A program made the position numbers and the translations under genes. A stretch of DNA of 64,000 nucleotides from Eledone cirrhosa (Eukaryota), in assembly GCA_964016885.1 (NCBI GenBank), contig OZ024740.1, forward strand, positions 114,514,001 to 114,578,000, written 5' to 3'. The notes under the pieces are model-generated. The model was given only the letters and a program-made list of their open reading frames with translations, was not told the origin of the DNA and did no database searches. Positions 1 to 37,700 of this stretch are shown one piece after another. Position 1 is the first letter of the stretch. Every line of letters begins with the position of its first letter.

Positions 1-252
1 ATTACATATCCAGTGCTTTTATCGAGAATGACACAGCTAGAGACTTATAGAATACTTAGCTGTGTACAGGAACTGGTTTGAAAGAGCGGTTGCCGGTCCG
101 GCAGAAATTAGAATTTGGATATAAAGCTCTGAAATAGCGATATATATGTGAAGACAAACATAGAATATTCGAAAATATTCTGTATGTTTATAATAAACAT
201 TTCGAAGACCCAATCGCTATAGAATAGAATACGTCACGTATTACAATTTGAG

Positions 253-341
253 ATTCTCGATAAAAGCAAGGGAAGTAACCTACGCGTTTCATTCTTATTA
301 GAAATCATCAGGATTACATATCCAGTGCTTTTATCGAGAAT
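253..341 (-). ncRNA. Type I hammerhead ribozyme (312-bp family)
   Basis: Reverse complement of 1156-1244. Confidence 0.8.
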
Positions 342-564
342 GACACAGCTAGAGACTTATAGAATACTTAGCTGTGTACAGGAACTGGTTTGAAAGAGCG
401 GTTGCCGGTCCGGCAGAAATTAGAATTTGGACATAATGCTCTGAAATAGCGATATATATGTGAAGACAAACATAGAATATTCGAAAATATTCTGTATGTT
501 TATAATAAACATTTCGAAGACCCAATCGCTATAGAATAGAATACGTCACGTATTACAATTTGAG

Positions 565-653
565 ATTCTCGATAAAAGCAAGGGAAGTAACCTACGCGTT
601 TCATTCTTATTAGAAATCATCAGGATTACATATCCAGTGCTTTTATCGAGAAT
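565..653 (-). ncRNA. Type I hammerhead ribozyme (312-bp family)
   Basis: Reverse complement of 1156-1244. Confidence 0.8.
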
Positions 654-876
654 GACACAGCTAGAGACTTATAGAATACTTAGCTGTGTACAGGAACTGG
701 TTTAAAAGAGCGGTTGCCGGTCCGGCAGAAATTAGAATTTGGATATAATGCTCTGAAATAGCGATATATATGTGAAGACAAACATAGAATATTCGAAAAT
801 ATTCTGTATGTTTATAATAAACATTTCGAAGACCCAATCGCTATAGAATAGAATACGTCACGTATTACAATTTGAG

Positions 877-965
877 ATTCTCGATAAAAGCAAGGGAAGT
901 AACCTACGCGTTTCATTCTTATTAGAAATCATCAGGATTACATATCCAGTGCTTTTATCGAGAAT
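877..965 (-). ncRNA. Type I hammerhead ribozyme (312-bp family)
   Basis: Reverse complement of 1156-1244. Confidence 0.8.
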
Positions 966-1155
966 GACACAGCTAGAGACTTATATGTTTATTATAAACA
1001 TACAGAATATTTTCGAATATTCTATGTTTGTCTTCACATATATATCGCTATTTCAGAGCATTATATCCAAATTCTAATTTCTGCCGGACCGGCAACCGCT
1101 CTTTCAAACCAGTTCCTGTACACAGCTAAGTATTCTATAAGTCTCTAGCTGTGTC

Positions 1156-1244
1156 ATTCTCGATAAAAGCACTGGATATGTAATCCTGATGATTTCTAAT
1201 AAGAATGAAACGCGTAGGTTACTTCCCTTGCTTTTATCGAGAAT
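1156..1244 (+). ncRNA. Type I hammerhead ribozyme with palindromic minimal stem III
   Basis: Stem I GTAATC/GGTTAC plus a 16-bp distal helix ATTCTCGATAAAAGCA/TGCTTTTATCGAGAAT; CTGATGA 1186-1192; stem II TTCT-AATA-AGAA; GAAA 1207-1210; ACGCGT palindrome; predicted GUA cleavage after 1216. Confidence 0.85.
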
Positions 1245-1467
1245 CTCAAATTGTAATACGTGACGTATTCTATTCTATAGCGATTGGGTCTTCGAAATGT
1301 TTATTATAAACATACAGAATATTTTCGAATATTCTATGTTTGTCTTCACATATATATCACTATTTCAGAGCATTATATCCAAATTCTAATTTCTGCCGGA
1401 CCGGCAACCGCTCTTTCAAACCAGTTCCTGTACACAGCTAAGTATTCTATAAGTCTCTAGCTGTGTC

Positions 1468-1556
1468 ATTCTCGATAAAAGCACTGGATATGTAATCCTG
1501 ATGATTTCTAATAAGAATGAAACGCGTAGGTTACTTCCCTTGCTTTTATCGAGAAT
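1468..1556 (+). ncRNA. Type I hammerhead ribozyme (312-bp family)
   Basis: Same as 1156-1244, offset +312. Confidence 0.85.
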
Positions 1557-1779
1557 CTCAAATTGTAATACGTGACGTATTCTATTCTATAGCGATTGGG
1601 TCTTCGAAATGTTTATTATAAACATACAGAATATTTTCGAATATTCTATGTTTGTGTTCACATATATATCGCTATTTCAGAGCATTATATCCAAATTCTA
1701 ATTTCTGCCGGACCAGCAACCGCTCTTTCAAACCAGTTCCTGTACACAGCTAAGTATTCTATAAGTCTCTAGCTGTGTC

Positions 1780-1868
1780 ATTCTCGATAAAAGCACTGGA
1801 TATGTAATCCTGATGATTTCTAATAAGAATGAAACGCGTAGGTTACTTCCCTTGCTTTTATCGAGAAT
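1780..1868 (+). ncRNA. Type I hammerhead ribozyme (312-bp family)
   Basis: Same as 1156-1244, offset +624. Confidence 0.85.
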
Positions 1869-1970
1869 CTCAAATTGTAATACGTGACGTATTCTATTCT
1901 ATAGCGATTGGGTCTTCGAAATGTTTATTATAAACATACAGAATATTTTCGAATATTCTATGTTTGTCTT

Positions 1971-2015
<45 letters not shown>

Positions 2016-2108
2016 TAACAGAATAACTATGAAGCTTCTTCCCTTCCTTCTACGGTTAGCTCTCCTCTTTGTTGTTATCTTGTCTCACTCGCTTTACGCG
2101 TTTTAATT

Positions 2109-2209
2109 GTCCTAATAACTTAATTTAGTTATTATTGCACCGACGTGAGGTATATGATTTTTAATGCAATGAAATATCTATGATCGTCGGCAAATCACTG
2201 ATGAGGGAC
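2109..2209 (+). ncRNA. Candidate permuted/pseudoknotted hammerhead-like ribozyme with kink-turn (copy 1)
   Basis: AUA site 2152-2154; stem I TGATTT(2155-60)/AAATCA(2192-97); CTGATGA 2198-2204; GAAA 2171-74; stem III GGTAT/ATATC; K-turn TC-TAT-GA-T / T-GA-GG; covariation with 41881-41982. Confidence 0.6.
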
Positions 2210-2627
2210 TTATTTTATTACATGTTATCCATGTGCAACCTGCAGTATTCTTCTCCCCATTTTTTTCACATATATTTACCTAAACTGCGATTCTGTTTTT
2301 TTCTCTCTCTCTCTCTCTCTTACTGCTCCCTCGTTCTCTCTGTTTCTCCTACTTTCTTTCGCCCCCTCTGTCATGTCAGTTAACTCTTCCTCACACTTCC
2401 ACTCACTCACTCACTGTTTCTCCTCTTCTCACTTAACCCCGTTCGTGACGAAAACATTTTCTCTCTTTCTCACATTTGGATTCGTTCCCGAAAGTTCTTT
2501 TTTCTAAGCGCTCATATATTCACCTAGCTTATGCTAACAGAATAACTATGAAGCTTGTTCCCTTCCTTCTACGGTTAGCTCTCCTCTTTGTTGTTATCTT
2601 GTCTCACTCGCTTTACGCGTTTTAATT

Positions 2628-2728
2628 GTCCTAATAACTTAATTTAGTTATTATTGCACCGACGTGAGGTATATGATTTTTAATGCAATGAAATATCTAT
2701 GATCGTCGGCAAATCACTGATGAGGGAC
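2628..2728 (+). ncRNA. Candidate permuted hammerhead-like ribozyme (copy 2)
   Basis: Same motif as 2109-2209. Confidence 0.6.
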
Positions 2729-2812
2729 TTATTTTATTACATGTTATCCATGTGCAACCTGCAGTATTCTTCTCCCCTTTTTTTCACATATATTTACCTA
2801 AACTGCGATTCT

Positions 2813-2884
<72 letters not shown>

Positions 2885-3188
2885 TGCTCCCTCGTTCCCT
2901 CTGTTTCTCCTACTTTCTTTCGCCCCCTCTGTCATGTCAGTTAACTCTTCCTCACACTTCCACTCATTCACTCACTGTTTCTCCTCTTCTCACTTCACCC
3001 CGTTCGTGACGAAAACATTGTCTCTCTTTCTCACATTTGGATTCGTTCCCGAAAGGTCTTTTTTCTAAGCGCTCATATATTCACCTAGCTTATGCTAACA
3101 GAATAACCATGAAGCTTGTTCCCTTCCTTCTACGGTTAGCTCTCCTCTTTGTTGTTATCTTGTCTCACTCGCTTTACGCGTTTTAATT

Positions 3189-3289
3189 GTCCTAATAACT
3201 TAATTTAGTTATTATTGCACCGACGTGAGGTATATGATTTTTAATGCAATGAAATATCTATGATCGTCGGCAAATCACTGATGAGGGAC
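3189..3289 (+). ncRNA. Candidate permuted hammerhead-like ribozyme (copy 3)
   Basis: Same motif as 2109-2209. Confidence 0.6.
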
Positions 3290-3544
3290 TTATTTTATTA
3301 CATGTTATCCATGTGCAACCTGCAGTATTCTTCTCCCCATTTTTTCACATATATATAGGTATATATATGTATGTATATATATAATATCCGTATATGCGAG
3401 CGTATACCTACTCTTGACACAATTCTGAAATACATTTATCTGATTTAATGGACACCTACAGCATTATGATTTATCATGAGATATCAGACATAGGCACACA
3501 CTCATATACACGCACACTCACACACATAAACACACAACACATGT

Positions 3545-3942: not shown

Positions 3943-3959
3943 GCACAAACACACACTGG

Positions 3960-5300
3960 AATGCCAAGATATAATGTCATATTAGGATAATGAAGTGAAT
4001 GAAGTGAATGAAGCTTTTGACTGAAGTCCTTCGTCAGGAAATGAAATGTGCGGATAGGGAGAAAATGTAACCGGGTTTGTTAGTAGTTAGCTGTGAGTGA
4101 GAGCGTGTGTAACGTTTGTGGAGCAGCGGAGAGCGAATGTAGATTGTTAGTATTATTAGCCATTGAGGCGGTGGTTTGGCAGTATCGGTAGAGGGTTGGA
4201 CGCCATGCTTTGAAGCATAGAGTTACGGCCCTTTATGATCTGAGTTCAAATCCTGCTGAGGTTAACTTTGCCTTTCATCCTTACCCGCGTCGATAAATTA
4301 AAGTACCAGTAATGCAATGGGATAATTATTAGCCACTGAGTTGGTTCGAGTGTGTATATGTAAGGGTGGTAGAGCGGAAAGGTGTGGAGACAGACGGGAG
4401 TCAGTAGTGTTAGTTGTGGTTGATTATGGTACGTTAGTTAATCAGTGGCTGGGGTTAAAATTGTATGGGGATCATATGGGCTTAACTGGTAAATTGATTG
4501 TGTTAGTGTGTCTGGGTATGTTGCTGAAGAAGTGAAGCAAGTGTCGCTAAGGGATGATTGACAAGGCTAACGGAAGAGGAGTGGGGAATAATTTAGACCA
4601 TTTTCGGTCCAAGAGTAAAAATAAAAGTGCACGGCTCATGTCTCAGTGTGTACCATGGGCCCCAGAGCGCGCGATAAAGCCACATACAGTGTGGTTGTGG
4701 GTGAAGTGTCCGGTGGAGGGGAAACGTCGAGCATAGAGTACAACGGATCCCGTAGACACGGCTGCAAGAGGTATATCTGAAGGATTCCTGGATTTGGAAG
4801 GATTGGTCGTTGGTTTCACGGATGGTGATTGAGTTAGTGATGCAACTGCAAAAATGACAGCGGGGTCAGGAGCAGGGGAAGGATCCGGGAGCGGAATTCG
4901 AGGGAGGAAGGGAGCTGCGGAAGAGGAGGATCTCGAGGTTGTGTGTGCGCTTAAAAGGAGAGAGGAGAGGGAGGAGGAAGATGGTGGAGATAGAAGGGTC
5001 CGACCGAAGGCGGCGGAGGAGTCGGAGGACCGTCCTCTGAAGAGGCAAGATGTAAGAGGAAATGGGAATCGGTTAGTGGGGGGGGGGGGGGGATAGGGCG
5101 GTGGTGCGGTCAACTCACGGGCGCGGCTGAGAGCAGTGTGGATCAAGCGCGGGAGATAACCTCGCCGAGTGAAGTGCCCAGCCATGTAATGGTCTTGGGC
5201 CTCAAAGTCATGGGTTTATCTTCATAGGTAGTGGTGACAGAGGGATTGGTAATAGGGATGGAGTGTTTCCTGTGGTTGGGGTGGGATGAGCTGATATCTA
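3960..5300 (-). mobile_element. Decayed Penelope-like element 3' part (RT C-terminus, linker, GIY-YIG start, 3' UTR)
   Basis: Minus ORF HFTRRGYLPRLIHTALSRAR resembles a PLE RT thumb; an alternative frame reads CSRPRCHFC..ESFRYTSCSRVYGIRCTLC, like a GIY-YIG start; a degenerate HHR lies near 4005-4040; boundaries approximate. Confidence 0.7.
4165..4322 (+). mobile_element. tRNA-derived SINE with conserved GCCTTTCATCC..GTCGATAAA..AAGTACCAG core
   Basis: B-box-like GAGTTCAAATCC followed by a core shared by more than 10 copies in the window. Confidence 0.8.
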
Positions 5301-5716
5301 GGGGAGGGAGTCAGTAGATTTAAAGAAGGTGGAGATGTTGAGTGAGCGAATGAAGACGTCAATATAAATGATGTCCAAGAAGTGAACGGGGATCGTGAAC
5401 TCAAGTGCGGATGGCACGAGCGGAGGAACAAGGGACACTAGTCGAGCTGTCCTCGAATATGACGGCCTATAGCTCGGTTATGGGATCAATGAATTGTACT
5501 ACGATTTCGGCCTTAACGAAGCCGACGAATAGGATGGCGTAGTTGGAGCCCATTGTTGTACCAATGGCCACCTCGGTTAACTGTTGGTAGAAATCGCCCG
5601 AAAAGGAAAAGCAGTTGAAGGTGAGGACCAGCCCGGCAAGGTGGGTGAGAATGGAAGTGGAGGCTTGAGCGGAGAGGTGAAGGCCGGGGAAGTGTCAGAG
5701 GGAACGTATCTATATA

Positions 5717-23013: not shown

Positions 23014-23082
23014 TGTATGTATGTATGTATGTATGTATGTATGTGTGTATGTATGTATGTATGTATATATATATATATATAT

Positions 23083-25800
23083 ATTGTTATACTTTGGGAG
23101 GGTCATGTTGCCAATAAGAAACACACGCACCAGTTGCTTTCACTTCAATTTATTATAATAAATTTATAAATTTAGGAATTTATAAATTTCCGGTTGGTTG
23201 GTTGGTTGGTTCTACAACCAGATGGTTGTTTATATATTGTCAAAGTTCTTTCGTCACACATTCTGTGACCTCTTCAGTGACTGGTGGTTCTTTTCTTTGT
23301 TTTTTTGTTTTTTGTGCCTCTCCTTTGTTCTGTCCTACGCCATCTTGTTTTTGCGTGTGTGCTTAGTTTGCGCATGTGTTACATCCGGGTGTCTGTGTGT
23401 GTTTATATTCGTTTATGTATTTGTTTATGAACATGTTACTGGTTGGTTGATTGTTCTATGTGTGTGTGTGTTTTCATTTTGTCCTTAATTGTAAGTTGGG
23501 ATGTTGCTGTTCCACTCATGTTTTCTATTTAATTTTGGTTGTAATTCATTTATGTTTATTGACTCTGTGATTTGTGTAAACATTGCGTCTTTTCAGTGTG
23601 TAGATTCTATTTTTATTTCTATGTTCTCTAATTTACCCTTATGTTCTATTTTAGCATGTTGGTAGAGTACAGATGATTCTTTACTATCTTAAAGGTCTCG
23701 CCAGTGTTCATTTATCCGTCACCCTATAATACGAGCTGTCTCACCTATGTACACTATATTTTTATCTCTACATTGTCCTTCAGTACATCTTATGCTATAT
23801 ACTAAATTTCTAGTTTTACAGTTAATATGGGGGCTTAATTTACAGATTATACATTTCTTATCTATACAGGGAGGTCTTTGAAAAGGGTATGTCTTGCTAA
23901 TAAGTGTTTTTTATGGAGGTACCAGGTCTTTCTACTATCTTAATATTGAGTTTATGTTTATCTAGGGCCCTTCTGAATTTGTAAGCTAATTCACCTATAG
24001 GGGTTGTATCGATGAACATTACACTCTGGTATTTATTGCTATCATACCATGAGTTTATTCTATTAGACTTATCCCTAGTTCTTTCTATTCTATTCCAAAA
24101 TTTGCTCCTATACAAGGGGCAGGTCCGATTTGTGTCATTATTTACCATTTTTTCCCATTTGGTTCTGGCTCCTCTATACACTCTGATTTTATCTCTCTGA
24201 TTGTAACCAGAGAACTGCATACGCTGGATGAAGTGTTGTATGTGTCTCTCTAGTTCTTCGGGGTTGCACATGGGGGACACGTTTCTCATCACCCGTACCA
24301 AATCAGCAATCAGTATGTTGATTTTGGTATGGTCCGAAACAGCTGAGTTTCGGTGGATCAGATATTTGGAAGTCATGGGAATGGAGGATTTGTTTTTTGT
24401 TATTAATGGTATCTAACCACAGCTCTGTGTCTAGTACAGGTAATCGATGGTTGGGGTGTTTACTTGGGTAGTCTATAGTAAATCTAATACTCTGGTGGAT
24501 GGAGTTAGCTATTTGCTGGATGCTTTCCATTGTGTTTTTCTCTAGTTCCTGACTGTTCTCTAGTGGGGGTGTTTTAACTACGATGTTTATATCATCAACG
24601 TAGCCGGAGTACATTATCAGGGTTAAGGGGTCTTCTAATTGTTCTTTAAGTTTAAGTTTAAGTCTACTGTCCCACCATACCATGAATAAGTTAGCTATGT
24701 CGCCTGCAATGCTAACCACAATGGCTGCTCCTTCCTCTTGGGCATATGTTTGTCCATTAAATTTGAACATATGTTCCTTAAGGGTTAATTTTATGCTGGC
24801 CCCCACCGCATGTGCAATCATTTTCTTTAGTTCATCGTGGTTTTCGGGGGTCCGTATGGCATGGTCCACCCGTTCCATCTATCTGTGTGGGTTTTCTTGG
24901 CCATTGAGGTAATGGTCGGTGGTCTGCCTCTTGCTGGTCTTGTAGGGCACAGGTTGCTAAGGTAATATGTGTCTAGATAATTATTACTATAGGTAAGTTT
25001 GAGTAGGAATCCCAGCTCATTGGTATCAATCCCATGGAATTCAACATTACTCTCACTGATCATTTCTACGCATTTCTCCACAGCAAAATCCACGTCAATA
25101 GATGGATACAGGGACACAACATCCATACTACCTATTATGCAGTTTGTTAGGTCCCTAGATCGGTTACTCACGCTGATTCTGCTGAGGAGGTCCTCCGTGC
25201 TGTAACATACATCTGGGGACATTTCAATGATGGGGCGTATGATCAGGGAGAGGAAGTAGCACAGTCTGTAGTTACTAGCAATGTTAGCTCCACAGACTGG
25301 CCGTGGTGGTGGTCCCGTGACAGGGTCACTGCTCGCTTTATGGTCTTTTCGAAGCCCATACAACGTTGGCACGTCATTGTTCCAGGTCTGGAAGTTGTTG
25401 GCAGTCCTTTTGTTGGGCTGCATTATATTTGTCCACATCACCATATGGGCATTGAGGGCTTTTTCTCTATCCTTATGCTCTTGTGGTGTTACTTCTCTTG
25501 TGTTAGTGATGTGGGGTTGCATTGCCTGGATGTAGTTTGGCAGACTCTCAACCGACATTCTGCCAGACCTGTCTGTTGGAAAGCATACTATCTCTCAATT
25601 ACGCGAGCGCTGCATGAGCTTACGCAAGCCATTTGCAGATTTTTTCCCAGTTGCTGGGCCTCCATTCTATTATGCTTCTTGCTATACTGTTCTATAATAT
25701 TTCTAAGTTTAGATCTAGCTATACTAAATTGTGCTTCTGTTTGTTCATCGACCTAAGACGGCAATTGCGTGCGTTTGTTAAAAGCTAAAGTCGTCGCGTG
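23083..25800 (-). mobile_element. Penelope-like retroelement (RT plus C-terminal GIY-YIG), frameshifted
   Basis: LYGLRKDHK, IGSMDVVSLYPSI, GYVDDI, LPVLD, FSGY; 23530-23890 reads NLVYSIRC..VYIGETAR..RINEH; 3' pseudo-LTR at about 23083-23530. Confidence 0.92.
23239..23281 (-). ncRNA. Minimal hammerhead ribozyme in the PLE pseudo-LTR
   Basis: GTCA-CTGAAGA-g-GTCACA gaatg TGTGAC-GAAA-gaac-TT^-TGAC, on the same strand as the PLE ORF. Confidence 0.75.
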
Positions 25801-27784
25801 GACTCGTCAAAGGTCGAATGACTTATCGGAGGGATTATAAAAAGTAGAGTTCCAGGCTGCTGCTTTATGTGTACTAGTGCTATTGTTATTGTTAGTTGTG
25901 TTGTTTCTATTTCTATTTCCACCAACAGCCTCATGGTTGTTTCTATGTCTCTCATTATTACTCCTGTCTCTTTCCTCTGGCTCATTGTTATTATCTACTC
26001 TATTTTGTGTGTGTGTTCGTCTTGGTTATTTTCTCTGTCCATAGTCTCCCTTCTCCTTTCAATCCTATTACCTTCCCTTATTTCTGTGCTACTGTCATTA
26101 CCTGTTTTCTGTGTCTGTGTGTTTGGTGGTGGTGAGAGGCATTGAATGTGTGTTGTTGTTGATGTGTGCTGTTGTTGATGTGTGTTGTTGTTGTTGTTCC
26201 GTGTATGTTATTATTGTTGTGTGTGTTGTTATTGTTGTTTGTGTCTGCGTGTCTGTTGTTGTTGTTTCTGAGTATGTTATTATTGTTGATGTGTGTTGTT
26301 GTTATTGTTGTTTGTGTCTGTGTGTCTGTTGTTGTTGGGATGTGTGTTGTATATGTGTGTGTGTGTATGTTGTTACTTTTGTTTTTGTTTTTGTACAAAT
26401 AATATGTGTTGCCGTATGTATGTATGCATGCACACATGCAGCACACACACAATATATAATTATTCGATTAGCCAAGGTTTCATTTAAATTAGACGATTCT
26501 AACAGAAATGTCTAGTTCGTTCATCCGATAAAATATCTGTTATGCATATAAGATTGGAAATTTAAATCTATTACAAGTGAAAGTATAAATATACATAGTT
26601 GTATACATACATATATATATATATAAACACACACACGTGTATTTGTCTGTGGATAAAGAAAACAACAAAGGGAGATAGGTGGGGGGGGGGGAGAAAGGGT
26701 ATTTTTCTTTCCATGTATTCACACTCGATTCTATTCCCCTTGGCATGTTTTGTACTTCTTTAAAACATATGAATTGAACATGTAATTCAAGGGGCCAGCC
26801 GCACTGAATAACCCTCAAACATACACGCGCCTACCAGACATGTTGACGTCCAATTTCACGAGAACTTTTCATATTCAACCAACTGAAAAGCTAGATGCGG
26901 AGTGAACGGAAACATTTCACGGTTATAAATAGTCACCTGAACAGAAAAATAAAGTAAATCTATAGAGTAACTCATCAGAATTGTTGCAAGAACATATTTC
27001 CATGCAAAGCAATTATTATATATATAAATGCCAAAAAACATCAAGCTGTGTATCAGTATTATCTGATATATATGTGTGTGTGTGCGTGTGTGTGTGCGTG
27101 CGTGTGTGTGTGTGTGTTTTATGCGCGTGTGTGTGTGTGTTGTGCGTGTGAATGAATATGTATGCATGTGTTTATATATATGTGTGAGTGAAGGAATGTG
27201 TGTATACATGTGTACGAACACAATTTAATCGAACAGGTTTTATATGGCTTTAAATACCATTTCAGCTGTAAATATATTTCGAAAATATTAATATACATAA
27301 TACACGTTCCTGCCGGGGGAATTTTACAACGTATTTCGAATGATATGATATGCTATATGGATATTTCTTTATGTAAAACTTCTATATCTTATAATGCATT
27401 TGAAATATAATGTGTATCTATATGGAAATATAGTTATTTTGATATGACTCAAAATATCATGACTCCTTTGGTGACGAAACATCCACAGGGGTATAGCGAT
27501 ATCTACACCTTCACGATGCTAAACATTTTAATATTTGTTTCTGGTTACTAGTTACAATCACACACTGGTCATTCTGTGACACCAATTGAAATGTGTTTTA
27601 GTGAAACATGTCGACCCCAGAACTTATATTTTTTGTCGTTCTCTTTCTAATCGAACCACTAATGTACGAAACATATATTCACAGGTACAAACTCGTACAT
27701 AGATACACACTAACAGGCACACATATTATATTACTGAAATTACTGACTACTGCAATTTTAAGTTTCATTATTATTCATTTGCAT

Positions 27785-37167: not shown

Positions 37168-37700
<533 letters not shown>

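Follow-up and report, generated by a model that had tools for sequence, protein, structure and literature searches.

Metazoan non-LTR retrozymes, as described for coral, mussel and axolotl (PMC7229834; bioRxiv 10.64898/2026.07.22.740005), are dispersed in short arrays of an AT-rich tandem unit of 150-450 bp that has no open reading frame (ORF) and carries one type I hammerhead with a short palindromic stem III. The same two papers already propose Penelope-like elements (PLEs) as the mobilizer of retrozymes. In EN+ PLEs, partial tandems, an inverted copy, a tail, a hammerhead and a microsatellite target without a readable target-site duplication have all been described (PMC8557442, PMC3846280); the inverted copy alongside is 5'-truncated, the tail measures 30-40 bp and is often found at one end only, and insertion is biased towards (TA)n or other microsatellites (PMC8557442). 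The protein of the PLE Poseidon is reported to cut and extend both strands from two internal starts bounding the tail; hammerhead mutants left insertion unaffected in those experiments, and uncleaved RNA was the dominant substrate (PMC11167929).

The window analyzed here is a stretch of 64,000 nucleotides (contig positions 114514001-114578000) from the 3.0-Gb genome of Eledone cirrhosa, and it opens with repeats of a 312-bp unit. Like the metazoan retrozymes, this element is AT-rich (GC 0.34), has one type I hammerhead per unit with a short palindromic stem III, occurs in dispersed short arrays and lacks an ORF of at least 120 aa in window positions 1-1981. Its arms consist of the unit alone, with neither LTR organization nor coding capacity. 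Unlike the described retrozymes, its arrays are built as two head-to-head arms with fixed short and tailed ends in (TA)n. The main texts of PMC7229834 and bioRxiv 10.64898/2026.07.22.740005 do not describe inverted, tailed or head-to-head arrays, and literature searches found no two-armed, one-tail retrozyme layout, which supplements, Repbase reports or subscription papers may contain. Cleavage and circles have been demonstrated for metazoan retrozymes, whereas for the 312-bp family they are predicted. The Xenopus retrozyme families are linked by sequence to autonomous pLTRs (bioRxiv 10.64898/2026.07.22.740005); no such link emerged for the 312-bp unit among the families sampled. It differs from EN+ PLEs in having no RT/EN ORF, and its hammerhead has the "canonical metazoan" layout of a 6-bp stem I and a 4-bp stem II, unlike the PLE min-HHR (PMC4209133). 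There is also a likeness with Poseidon of Anolis (PAc) in vitro, where both strands are cut and extended from two starts 3' of the hammerhead cut at an AT-rich target; the PAc experiments gave no start-site difference between strands (PMC11167929), whereas nearly every two-armed insertion of the 312-bp family has one inferred start of each kind.

Retrozyme, hammerhead and PLE tail are thus each known, and a Penelope link has already been proposed. The element has those features of a metazoan non-LTR retrozyme that can be read from DNA, and its insertions bear the Penelope signature. We consider it probable that the locus is one young insertion of a 312-bp hammerhead repeat, written by Penelope machinery from both cut strands and from one, probably circular, monomer RNA.

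Anatomy of the locus and its hammerhead motifs

Unit positions are given as c, with c1 being the first base past the predicted cleavage site (window position 1217). The sequence-only reading described six complete type I hammerheads spaced 312 bp apart in a single tandem. A core scan confirmed the six motifs and Tandem Repeats Finder (TRF) the period, but the single tandem proved to be two opposed arms: TRF split the repeats into one array at 1-985 and another at 985-1981, both of 312-bp period and each with a consensus unit that is the reverse complement of the other, with three motifs on each strand and 251 bp between the inner cores of the two arms (Table 1). The outer end of the left arm lies at contig position 114513801, where the tailed, or "long", end (c~166-168) adjoins (TA)n. 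Such tracts flank the locus on both sides, and no target-site duplication is readable in the tract.

Table 1 Features of the window and examples of subfamily B (window positions unless a locus is named)
Feature	Position	Strand	Remarks
Left arm	1..985	-	3.8 units in all; starts 200 bp upstream of the window
Edge of seventh hammerhead motif	1..5	-	straddles the window start (contig 114513970-114514005)
Type I hammerhead motif	275..317 (core 311-281)	-	predicted cleavage at 281
Type I hammerhead motif	587..629 (core 623-593)	-	predicted cleavage at 593
Type I hammerhead motif	899..941 (core 935-905)	-	predicted cleavage at 905
Head-to-head junction of two 5'-truncated arms	985		c232 joined to c81, 1-nt overlap
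Right arm	985..1972	+	3.2 units; short end (c~132) on the outside
Type I hammerhead motif	1180..1222 (core 1186-1216)	+	predicted cleavage after A1216
Full unit, cleavage site to cleavage site	1217..1528	+	predicted 312-nt monomer or circle
Predicted long hairpin c81-132	1297..1348	+	directly before the short end
Internal copy of the ~35-nt "tail"	1348..1382	+	between the inferred RT start sites c131 and c166
Type I hammerhead motif	1492..1534 (core 1498-1528)	+	predicted cleavage after 1528
Type I hammerhead motif	1804..1846 (core 1810-1840)	+	predicted cleavage after 1840
(TA)n target tract, right end	1973..2013		
Decayed copy of the abundant EN-bearing PLE	23080-26100	-	RT motifs, GIY-YIG-like region
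Subfamily B examples	L075:2530-2870, L086:1013-1712, L084:1469-2065		U3-A8 core, both end positions kept

The near-identity of the units that had been noticed is real, as full units, of which the window has four, differ at 2-3 of 312 bases, and all five of the hairpin arm pairs named earlier fall within one unit. The predicted hairpin at c81-132 has one stem pair that differs on both sides in subfamily B, an older relative described below. The internal tail copy includes a motif common to subfamily B and carries a small hairpin in the predicted circle fold. When the unit (1529-1840) was folded as a circle, a free energy of -70.8 kcal/mol was obtained (z = -4.3 relative to 200 dinucleotide-shuffled sequences). 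The fold of the opposite strand is as good or better, at -78.9 kcal/mol, so folding cannot choose the strand.

Each motif comprises a 6-bp stem I, CUGAUGA, a stem II of U.U plus 4 bp, GAAA and a 6-nt palindromic stem III. The palindromic ACGCGT stem III and the long, interrupted stem I were described correctly by the sequence-only reading, as were the positions of the predicted cleavage nucleotide, A1216, and of G5, G1188. Two copies of the stem III stretch co-fold as a 6-bp duplex. The proposal that tandem copies supply the pairing partner in cis could apply within each arm, which has three to four motifs on its strand, and not to the array as a whole. The canonical core is present (CUGANGA, GAAA, UH and stems I-III), while the canonical G10.1-C11.1 pair of stem II is replaced by U.U in subfamily A and by C.A in subfamily B; a cleaving axolotl retrozyme hammerhead, HHR_Amex2, shares U.U at the stem II base (PMC7229834). 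No Rfam model matched at its gathering score, the best match being Hammerhead_HH9 with 19.9 bits (E 0.051; gathering 52), and constraining the fold to the hammerhead costs 3.3 kcal/mol in stability compared with the unconstrained fold. Core and cleavable nucleotide are kept in 213 of 226 complete motifs from 62 loci.

Subfamily B has a 328-bp unit that is 65-78% identical to the 312-bp unit in matched stretches; 40 of its 1609 first-look candidates were scored. Relative to subfamily A, its C3-G8 pair has become U3-A8, a hammerhead variant described in PMC4209133, stems I and II each have two pairs that have changed on both sides, and stem III is an 8-nt palindrome. In the A/B alignment (21 distinct rows), pairing is kept in 92.2% of cells, and both partners have changed in 5 of 17 pairs; this covariation counts as about five changes and not 23, because most are single events between the two subfamilies. 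The hammerhead pairs, the catalytic core included, are conserved through compensatory change as judged from this alignment. We regard the hammerheads as genuine motifs with predicted self-cleavage. Against activity speak the stem II without G10.1-C11.1, the greater stability of the unconstrained fold and the precedent of Xenopus retrozymes, of which only one of nine predicted dimers cleaved (bioRxiv 10.64898/2026.07.22.740005).

Layout and ends of the insertions across the genome

The copy count suggested by the sequence-only reading came to 582 exact matches of a 36-base core, with none for the reversed control. The first 100 core matches listed fall in 34 places, which extrapolates to ~200 loci. 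Sixty-two loci on many contigs were compared. Thirty-nine were selected by BLAST, grouped from 150 listed of 210 matches (40 of 895 candidates scored), and 23 by pattern, these being all further contig-1 loci among the first 100 listed core-pattern matches. Arms are mostly 96-99.6% identical to the window unit and reach 7 units. A dispersed young family without an ORF and with compensatory hammerhead changes supports the earlier description of a recently active non-LTR retrozyme. Among four read sets of unrecorded kind, one has the unit in a lone contig of 342 bases (unit + 30), while contigs of a second one join left-arm to right-arm sequence; such contigs cannot separate circles from tandem DNA.

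Forty-five of the 62 loci are head-to-head, 17 lack an adjacent inverted arm and none is tail-to-tail. One of the 17, L030, conceals a 17-nt second arm of the long class. The outer ends fall into two classes. Short ends have a BLAST end at c137-151 and a modal last base before the TA run at c131, and long ends have a BLAST end at c162-174 and a modal last base at c166, 35 nt beyond the short. The exact position of the short end is blurred by a AUAUAUAU stretch at c134-141, which could pair with the target. Of the head-to-head loci, 44/45 have one short and one long end; short-short and long-long pairs do not occur, and the one remaining locus, L082, was left unclassed. The rule is present in the BLAST-selected and the pattern-selected loci alike, and it amounts to 43 independent cases since L028 and L071 are one duplicated insertion. 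A TA run of at least 10 nt adjoins 83 of 90 outer ends.

Inner junctions vary between loci. Of 24 junctions that could be called, 12 have at least 3 nt of microhomology, where chance predicts 6%; inserted bases are present, or extension fails, at 20 of 44 junctions. In subfamily B (27 distinct places, 13 of them two-armed), the outer ends lie at the same distances from the cleavage site as in the 312-bp family, and the one-short-one-long rule is clear in 8 of the 13 two-armed places, apparently broken in three and ambiguous in two. On the evidence of these alignments, the layout, namely an inverted copy, a one-sided tail of 30-40 nt and two putative RT starts, is the published signature of Penelope-like insertion.

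Penelope-like elements and other repeats in the same genome

Starting from a decayed PLE copy in our window, we searched for an autonomous partner by scoring 150 of 20353 first-look RT candidates. The search revealed an abundant family with RT and GIY-YIG-like regions and open frames of up to 1241 aa, which we class as probably Neptune/Nematis-like from its visible Cx4CxxC linker (compare PMC8557442). Its RT-EN part gave no sequence match in PDB and a sub-threshold Pfam match to GIY-YIG. Short and long opposed ends in (TA)n were present in 5 of 8 long copies; the other three comprise a copy with two long ends, a copy with a single end and an uncalled copy. The decayed copy in our window (Table 1) has a minimal hammerhead-like motif near 23275-23230 and a 3' end in (TA)n. 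The tail of this family is ~58-60 nt long, against 35 nt in the 312-bp family and 30-40 nt in PMC8557442, and there is no shared sequence with the unit; the abundant family therefore shows the mechanism operating in this genome and not a partnership. More broadly, no autonomous PLE sharing sequence with the unit was found among 30 RT-hit loci, 8 long copies and one family compared by eye. Three candidates were set aside as partners for want of clear sequence in common with the unit, namely the abundant PLE, the PLE of L051 and a short palindromic hammerhead family.

The L051 element (L051:302-1777) consists of another RT ORF, matched by Pfam RVT_1 at E 1.7e-07, whose C-terminal part resembles an endonuclease and which is followed by a decayed hammerhead-like motif; its RT is ~31% identical to that of the abundant family. 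A second, GC-richer decayed PLE was identified by eye at window 3950-5700 on the minus strand; it ends in (GT)n and has a degenerate hammerhead near 4035-4010. The short palindromic hammerhead family (~190 bp; L151-L175, ~1500-1720 in each; 40 of 3403 candidates scored) has, by eye, an almost fixed head-to-head junction, a ~65-nt tail on the same arm and U.U at the stem II base. Adjoining the array at window 1990-3360 are ~2.5 copies of a ~520-560-bp tandem repeat, which exceeds the 500-bp period limit of TRF, is dispersed in other loci and has CUGAUGA and GAAA elements far apart. At L041 this repeat adjoins a retrozyme arm, starting ~36-45 nt further in, and may represent another tail. Inverted 53-bp units beside a (TA)n tract at window 37419-37635 are possibly another short two-armed insertion.

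Template, priming and implications

We propose that an arm would be transcribed outward as a multimer, that neighbouring hammerheads would pair via the palindromic stem III to release 312-nt monomers and that a host RtcB-type ligase would close these, by analogy with PMC7229834. A borrowed Penelope-like reverse transcriptase/GIY-YIG endonuclease would cut both (TA)n strands, and cDNA synthesis would start from the two 3' ends, at c~131 on one and c~166 on the other, flanking a small conserved element. Each cDNA would then roll around the circle for 0.1-7 turns up to a random stop, and the cDNA ends would be joined through 1-6-nt microhomology and filled in.

More than one unit is present in 69 of 88 arms and more than two in 43, the longest having 7.2 units. 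Inner ends within 8 nt of the cleavage site occur at chance level (5/90 against 4.6 expected), so copying ran through that site; a linear monomer template was rejected for this lack of enrichment of 5' ends. Within loci, 137 variants are fixed in all units, 20 are mosaic, 206 are single and 31 uninformative. With L071 excluded, 18 of 1225 sites compared between the two arms of a locus are different (1.5%), whereas shuffled pairs of arms give 11.7% (minimum 7.5%), and of eight fixed variants that are private to a locus, four occur in both arms. A-to-I editing of the circle was discarded as a source of these variants, as fixed changes in the first 39 loci include T>C, at three sites, as well as A>G, at five. 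For a variant to be fixed throughout both arms, a single-unit bottleneck is required, most simply a circle. A circular monomer template is thus favoured, not proven.

The same two-sided Penelope insertion could instead have copied an uncleaved linear multimer from the donor, or have begun as a short insert that unequal exchange later expanded, leaving hammerhead and circle off the integration path; we think this rather unlikely. Read-through of the cleavage site could equally come from a linear multimer, given the dominance of unprocessed RNA and the indifference to hammerhead mutations in PMC11167929, and a homogeneous donor multimer could also yield fixed variants. The 20 mosaic variants speak for it, as does the whole-unit difference in one arm between L028 and L071, which share junction and flank; unit number can evidently change after insertion or in assembly. 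So do the loci with a predicted non-cleavable nucleotide. Of 235 units, 10 carry a G at c312 and one carries a T, the G occurring in 3/3 units of L044 and 5/6 of L024, also in L022 and L068, and on more than one haplotype background. It is possible that the G arose by junction misreading, or that uncleavable RNA was copied preferentially; as a predicted non-cleaving nucleotide it is not easily squared with a self-cleaved circle. Against a multimer, new variants in all units of both arms (the four private ones and many that are lineage-wide) demand the single-unit bottleneck, copying of multimers would pass on changes in single units as mosaics and could make arrays shorter but never longer, and hammerhead pairs have been kept through compensatory change.

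It is quite improbable that only one priming event took place, the first cDNA folding back to self-prime the inverted arm (compare rotifer PLEs, PMC3846280). Identical haplotypes in both arms would be expected here as well, BLAST overlaps of 15-37 nt exist at 6 of 45 junctions, mostly inside the hairpin that c81-132 naturally forms, and the bin c79-117 contains 21 of 90 inner ends against ~11 expected, with an overall p of 0.13. However, in 11 of 44 loci neither arm is possible as a contiguous copy of the other, the longer arm is the short-ended one in 26 and the tailed one in 18, and the lengths of the two arms show no correlation (Spearman -0.10, p 0.53). Assembly is known to create perfect palindromes as artefacts, and the Rfam score lies under gathering, but we find it scarcely credible that the locus is a long-read fold-back artefact or an inert satellite with a chance hammerhead-like motif. 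The loci are dispersed with differing flanks and junctions, their asymmetric arms have a fixed pair of ends, the same ends recur in a subfamily that is ~70% identical, and compensatory changes reach the catalytic core; the fixed short-plus-long rule refutes the assembly reading.

Returning to two-sided priming on a probably circular monomer, independent choice of the start on two RNAs would make half of all pairs same-class; the young family has none, which points to coupled priming of the two strands. Tentatively, we suggest that a dimer of the Penelope protein may sit on one 312-nt circle, with coupled priming of the two cut (TA)n strands at two fixed sites 35 nt apart, one of each in every case, both RTs rolling on that circle and the products joined head to head. 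A transcript that entered from a flank and crossed the entire locus would form a hairpin of up to ~1 kb, in which the hammerheads would be masked and which could be a source for RNA silencing; to yield monomers, transcription would need to start within an arm and head outward.

The origin of tandem, inverted and tailed PLE insertions is still called undefined in PMC8557442, and the travel of retrozymes on Penelope enzymes via circles rested on co-occurrence and trees in the accounts of PMC7229834 and bioRxiv 10.64898/2026.07.22.740005. The young 312-bp family shows the insertion signature directly and quantitatively, with unusually clean statistics, and a 312-nt RNA with its two mapped start sites provides a minimal substrate on which circle and linear template, or coupled and independent priming, could be compared. 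If the coupled rolling-circle model is true, a single step would account for the tails, inversions and tandem structure seen in Penelope-like elements, and the family would provide genomic evidence for an animal circular RNA as a template of retrotransposition.
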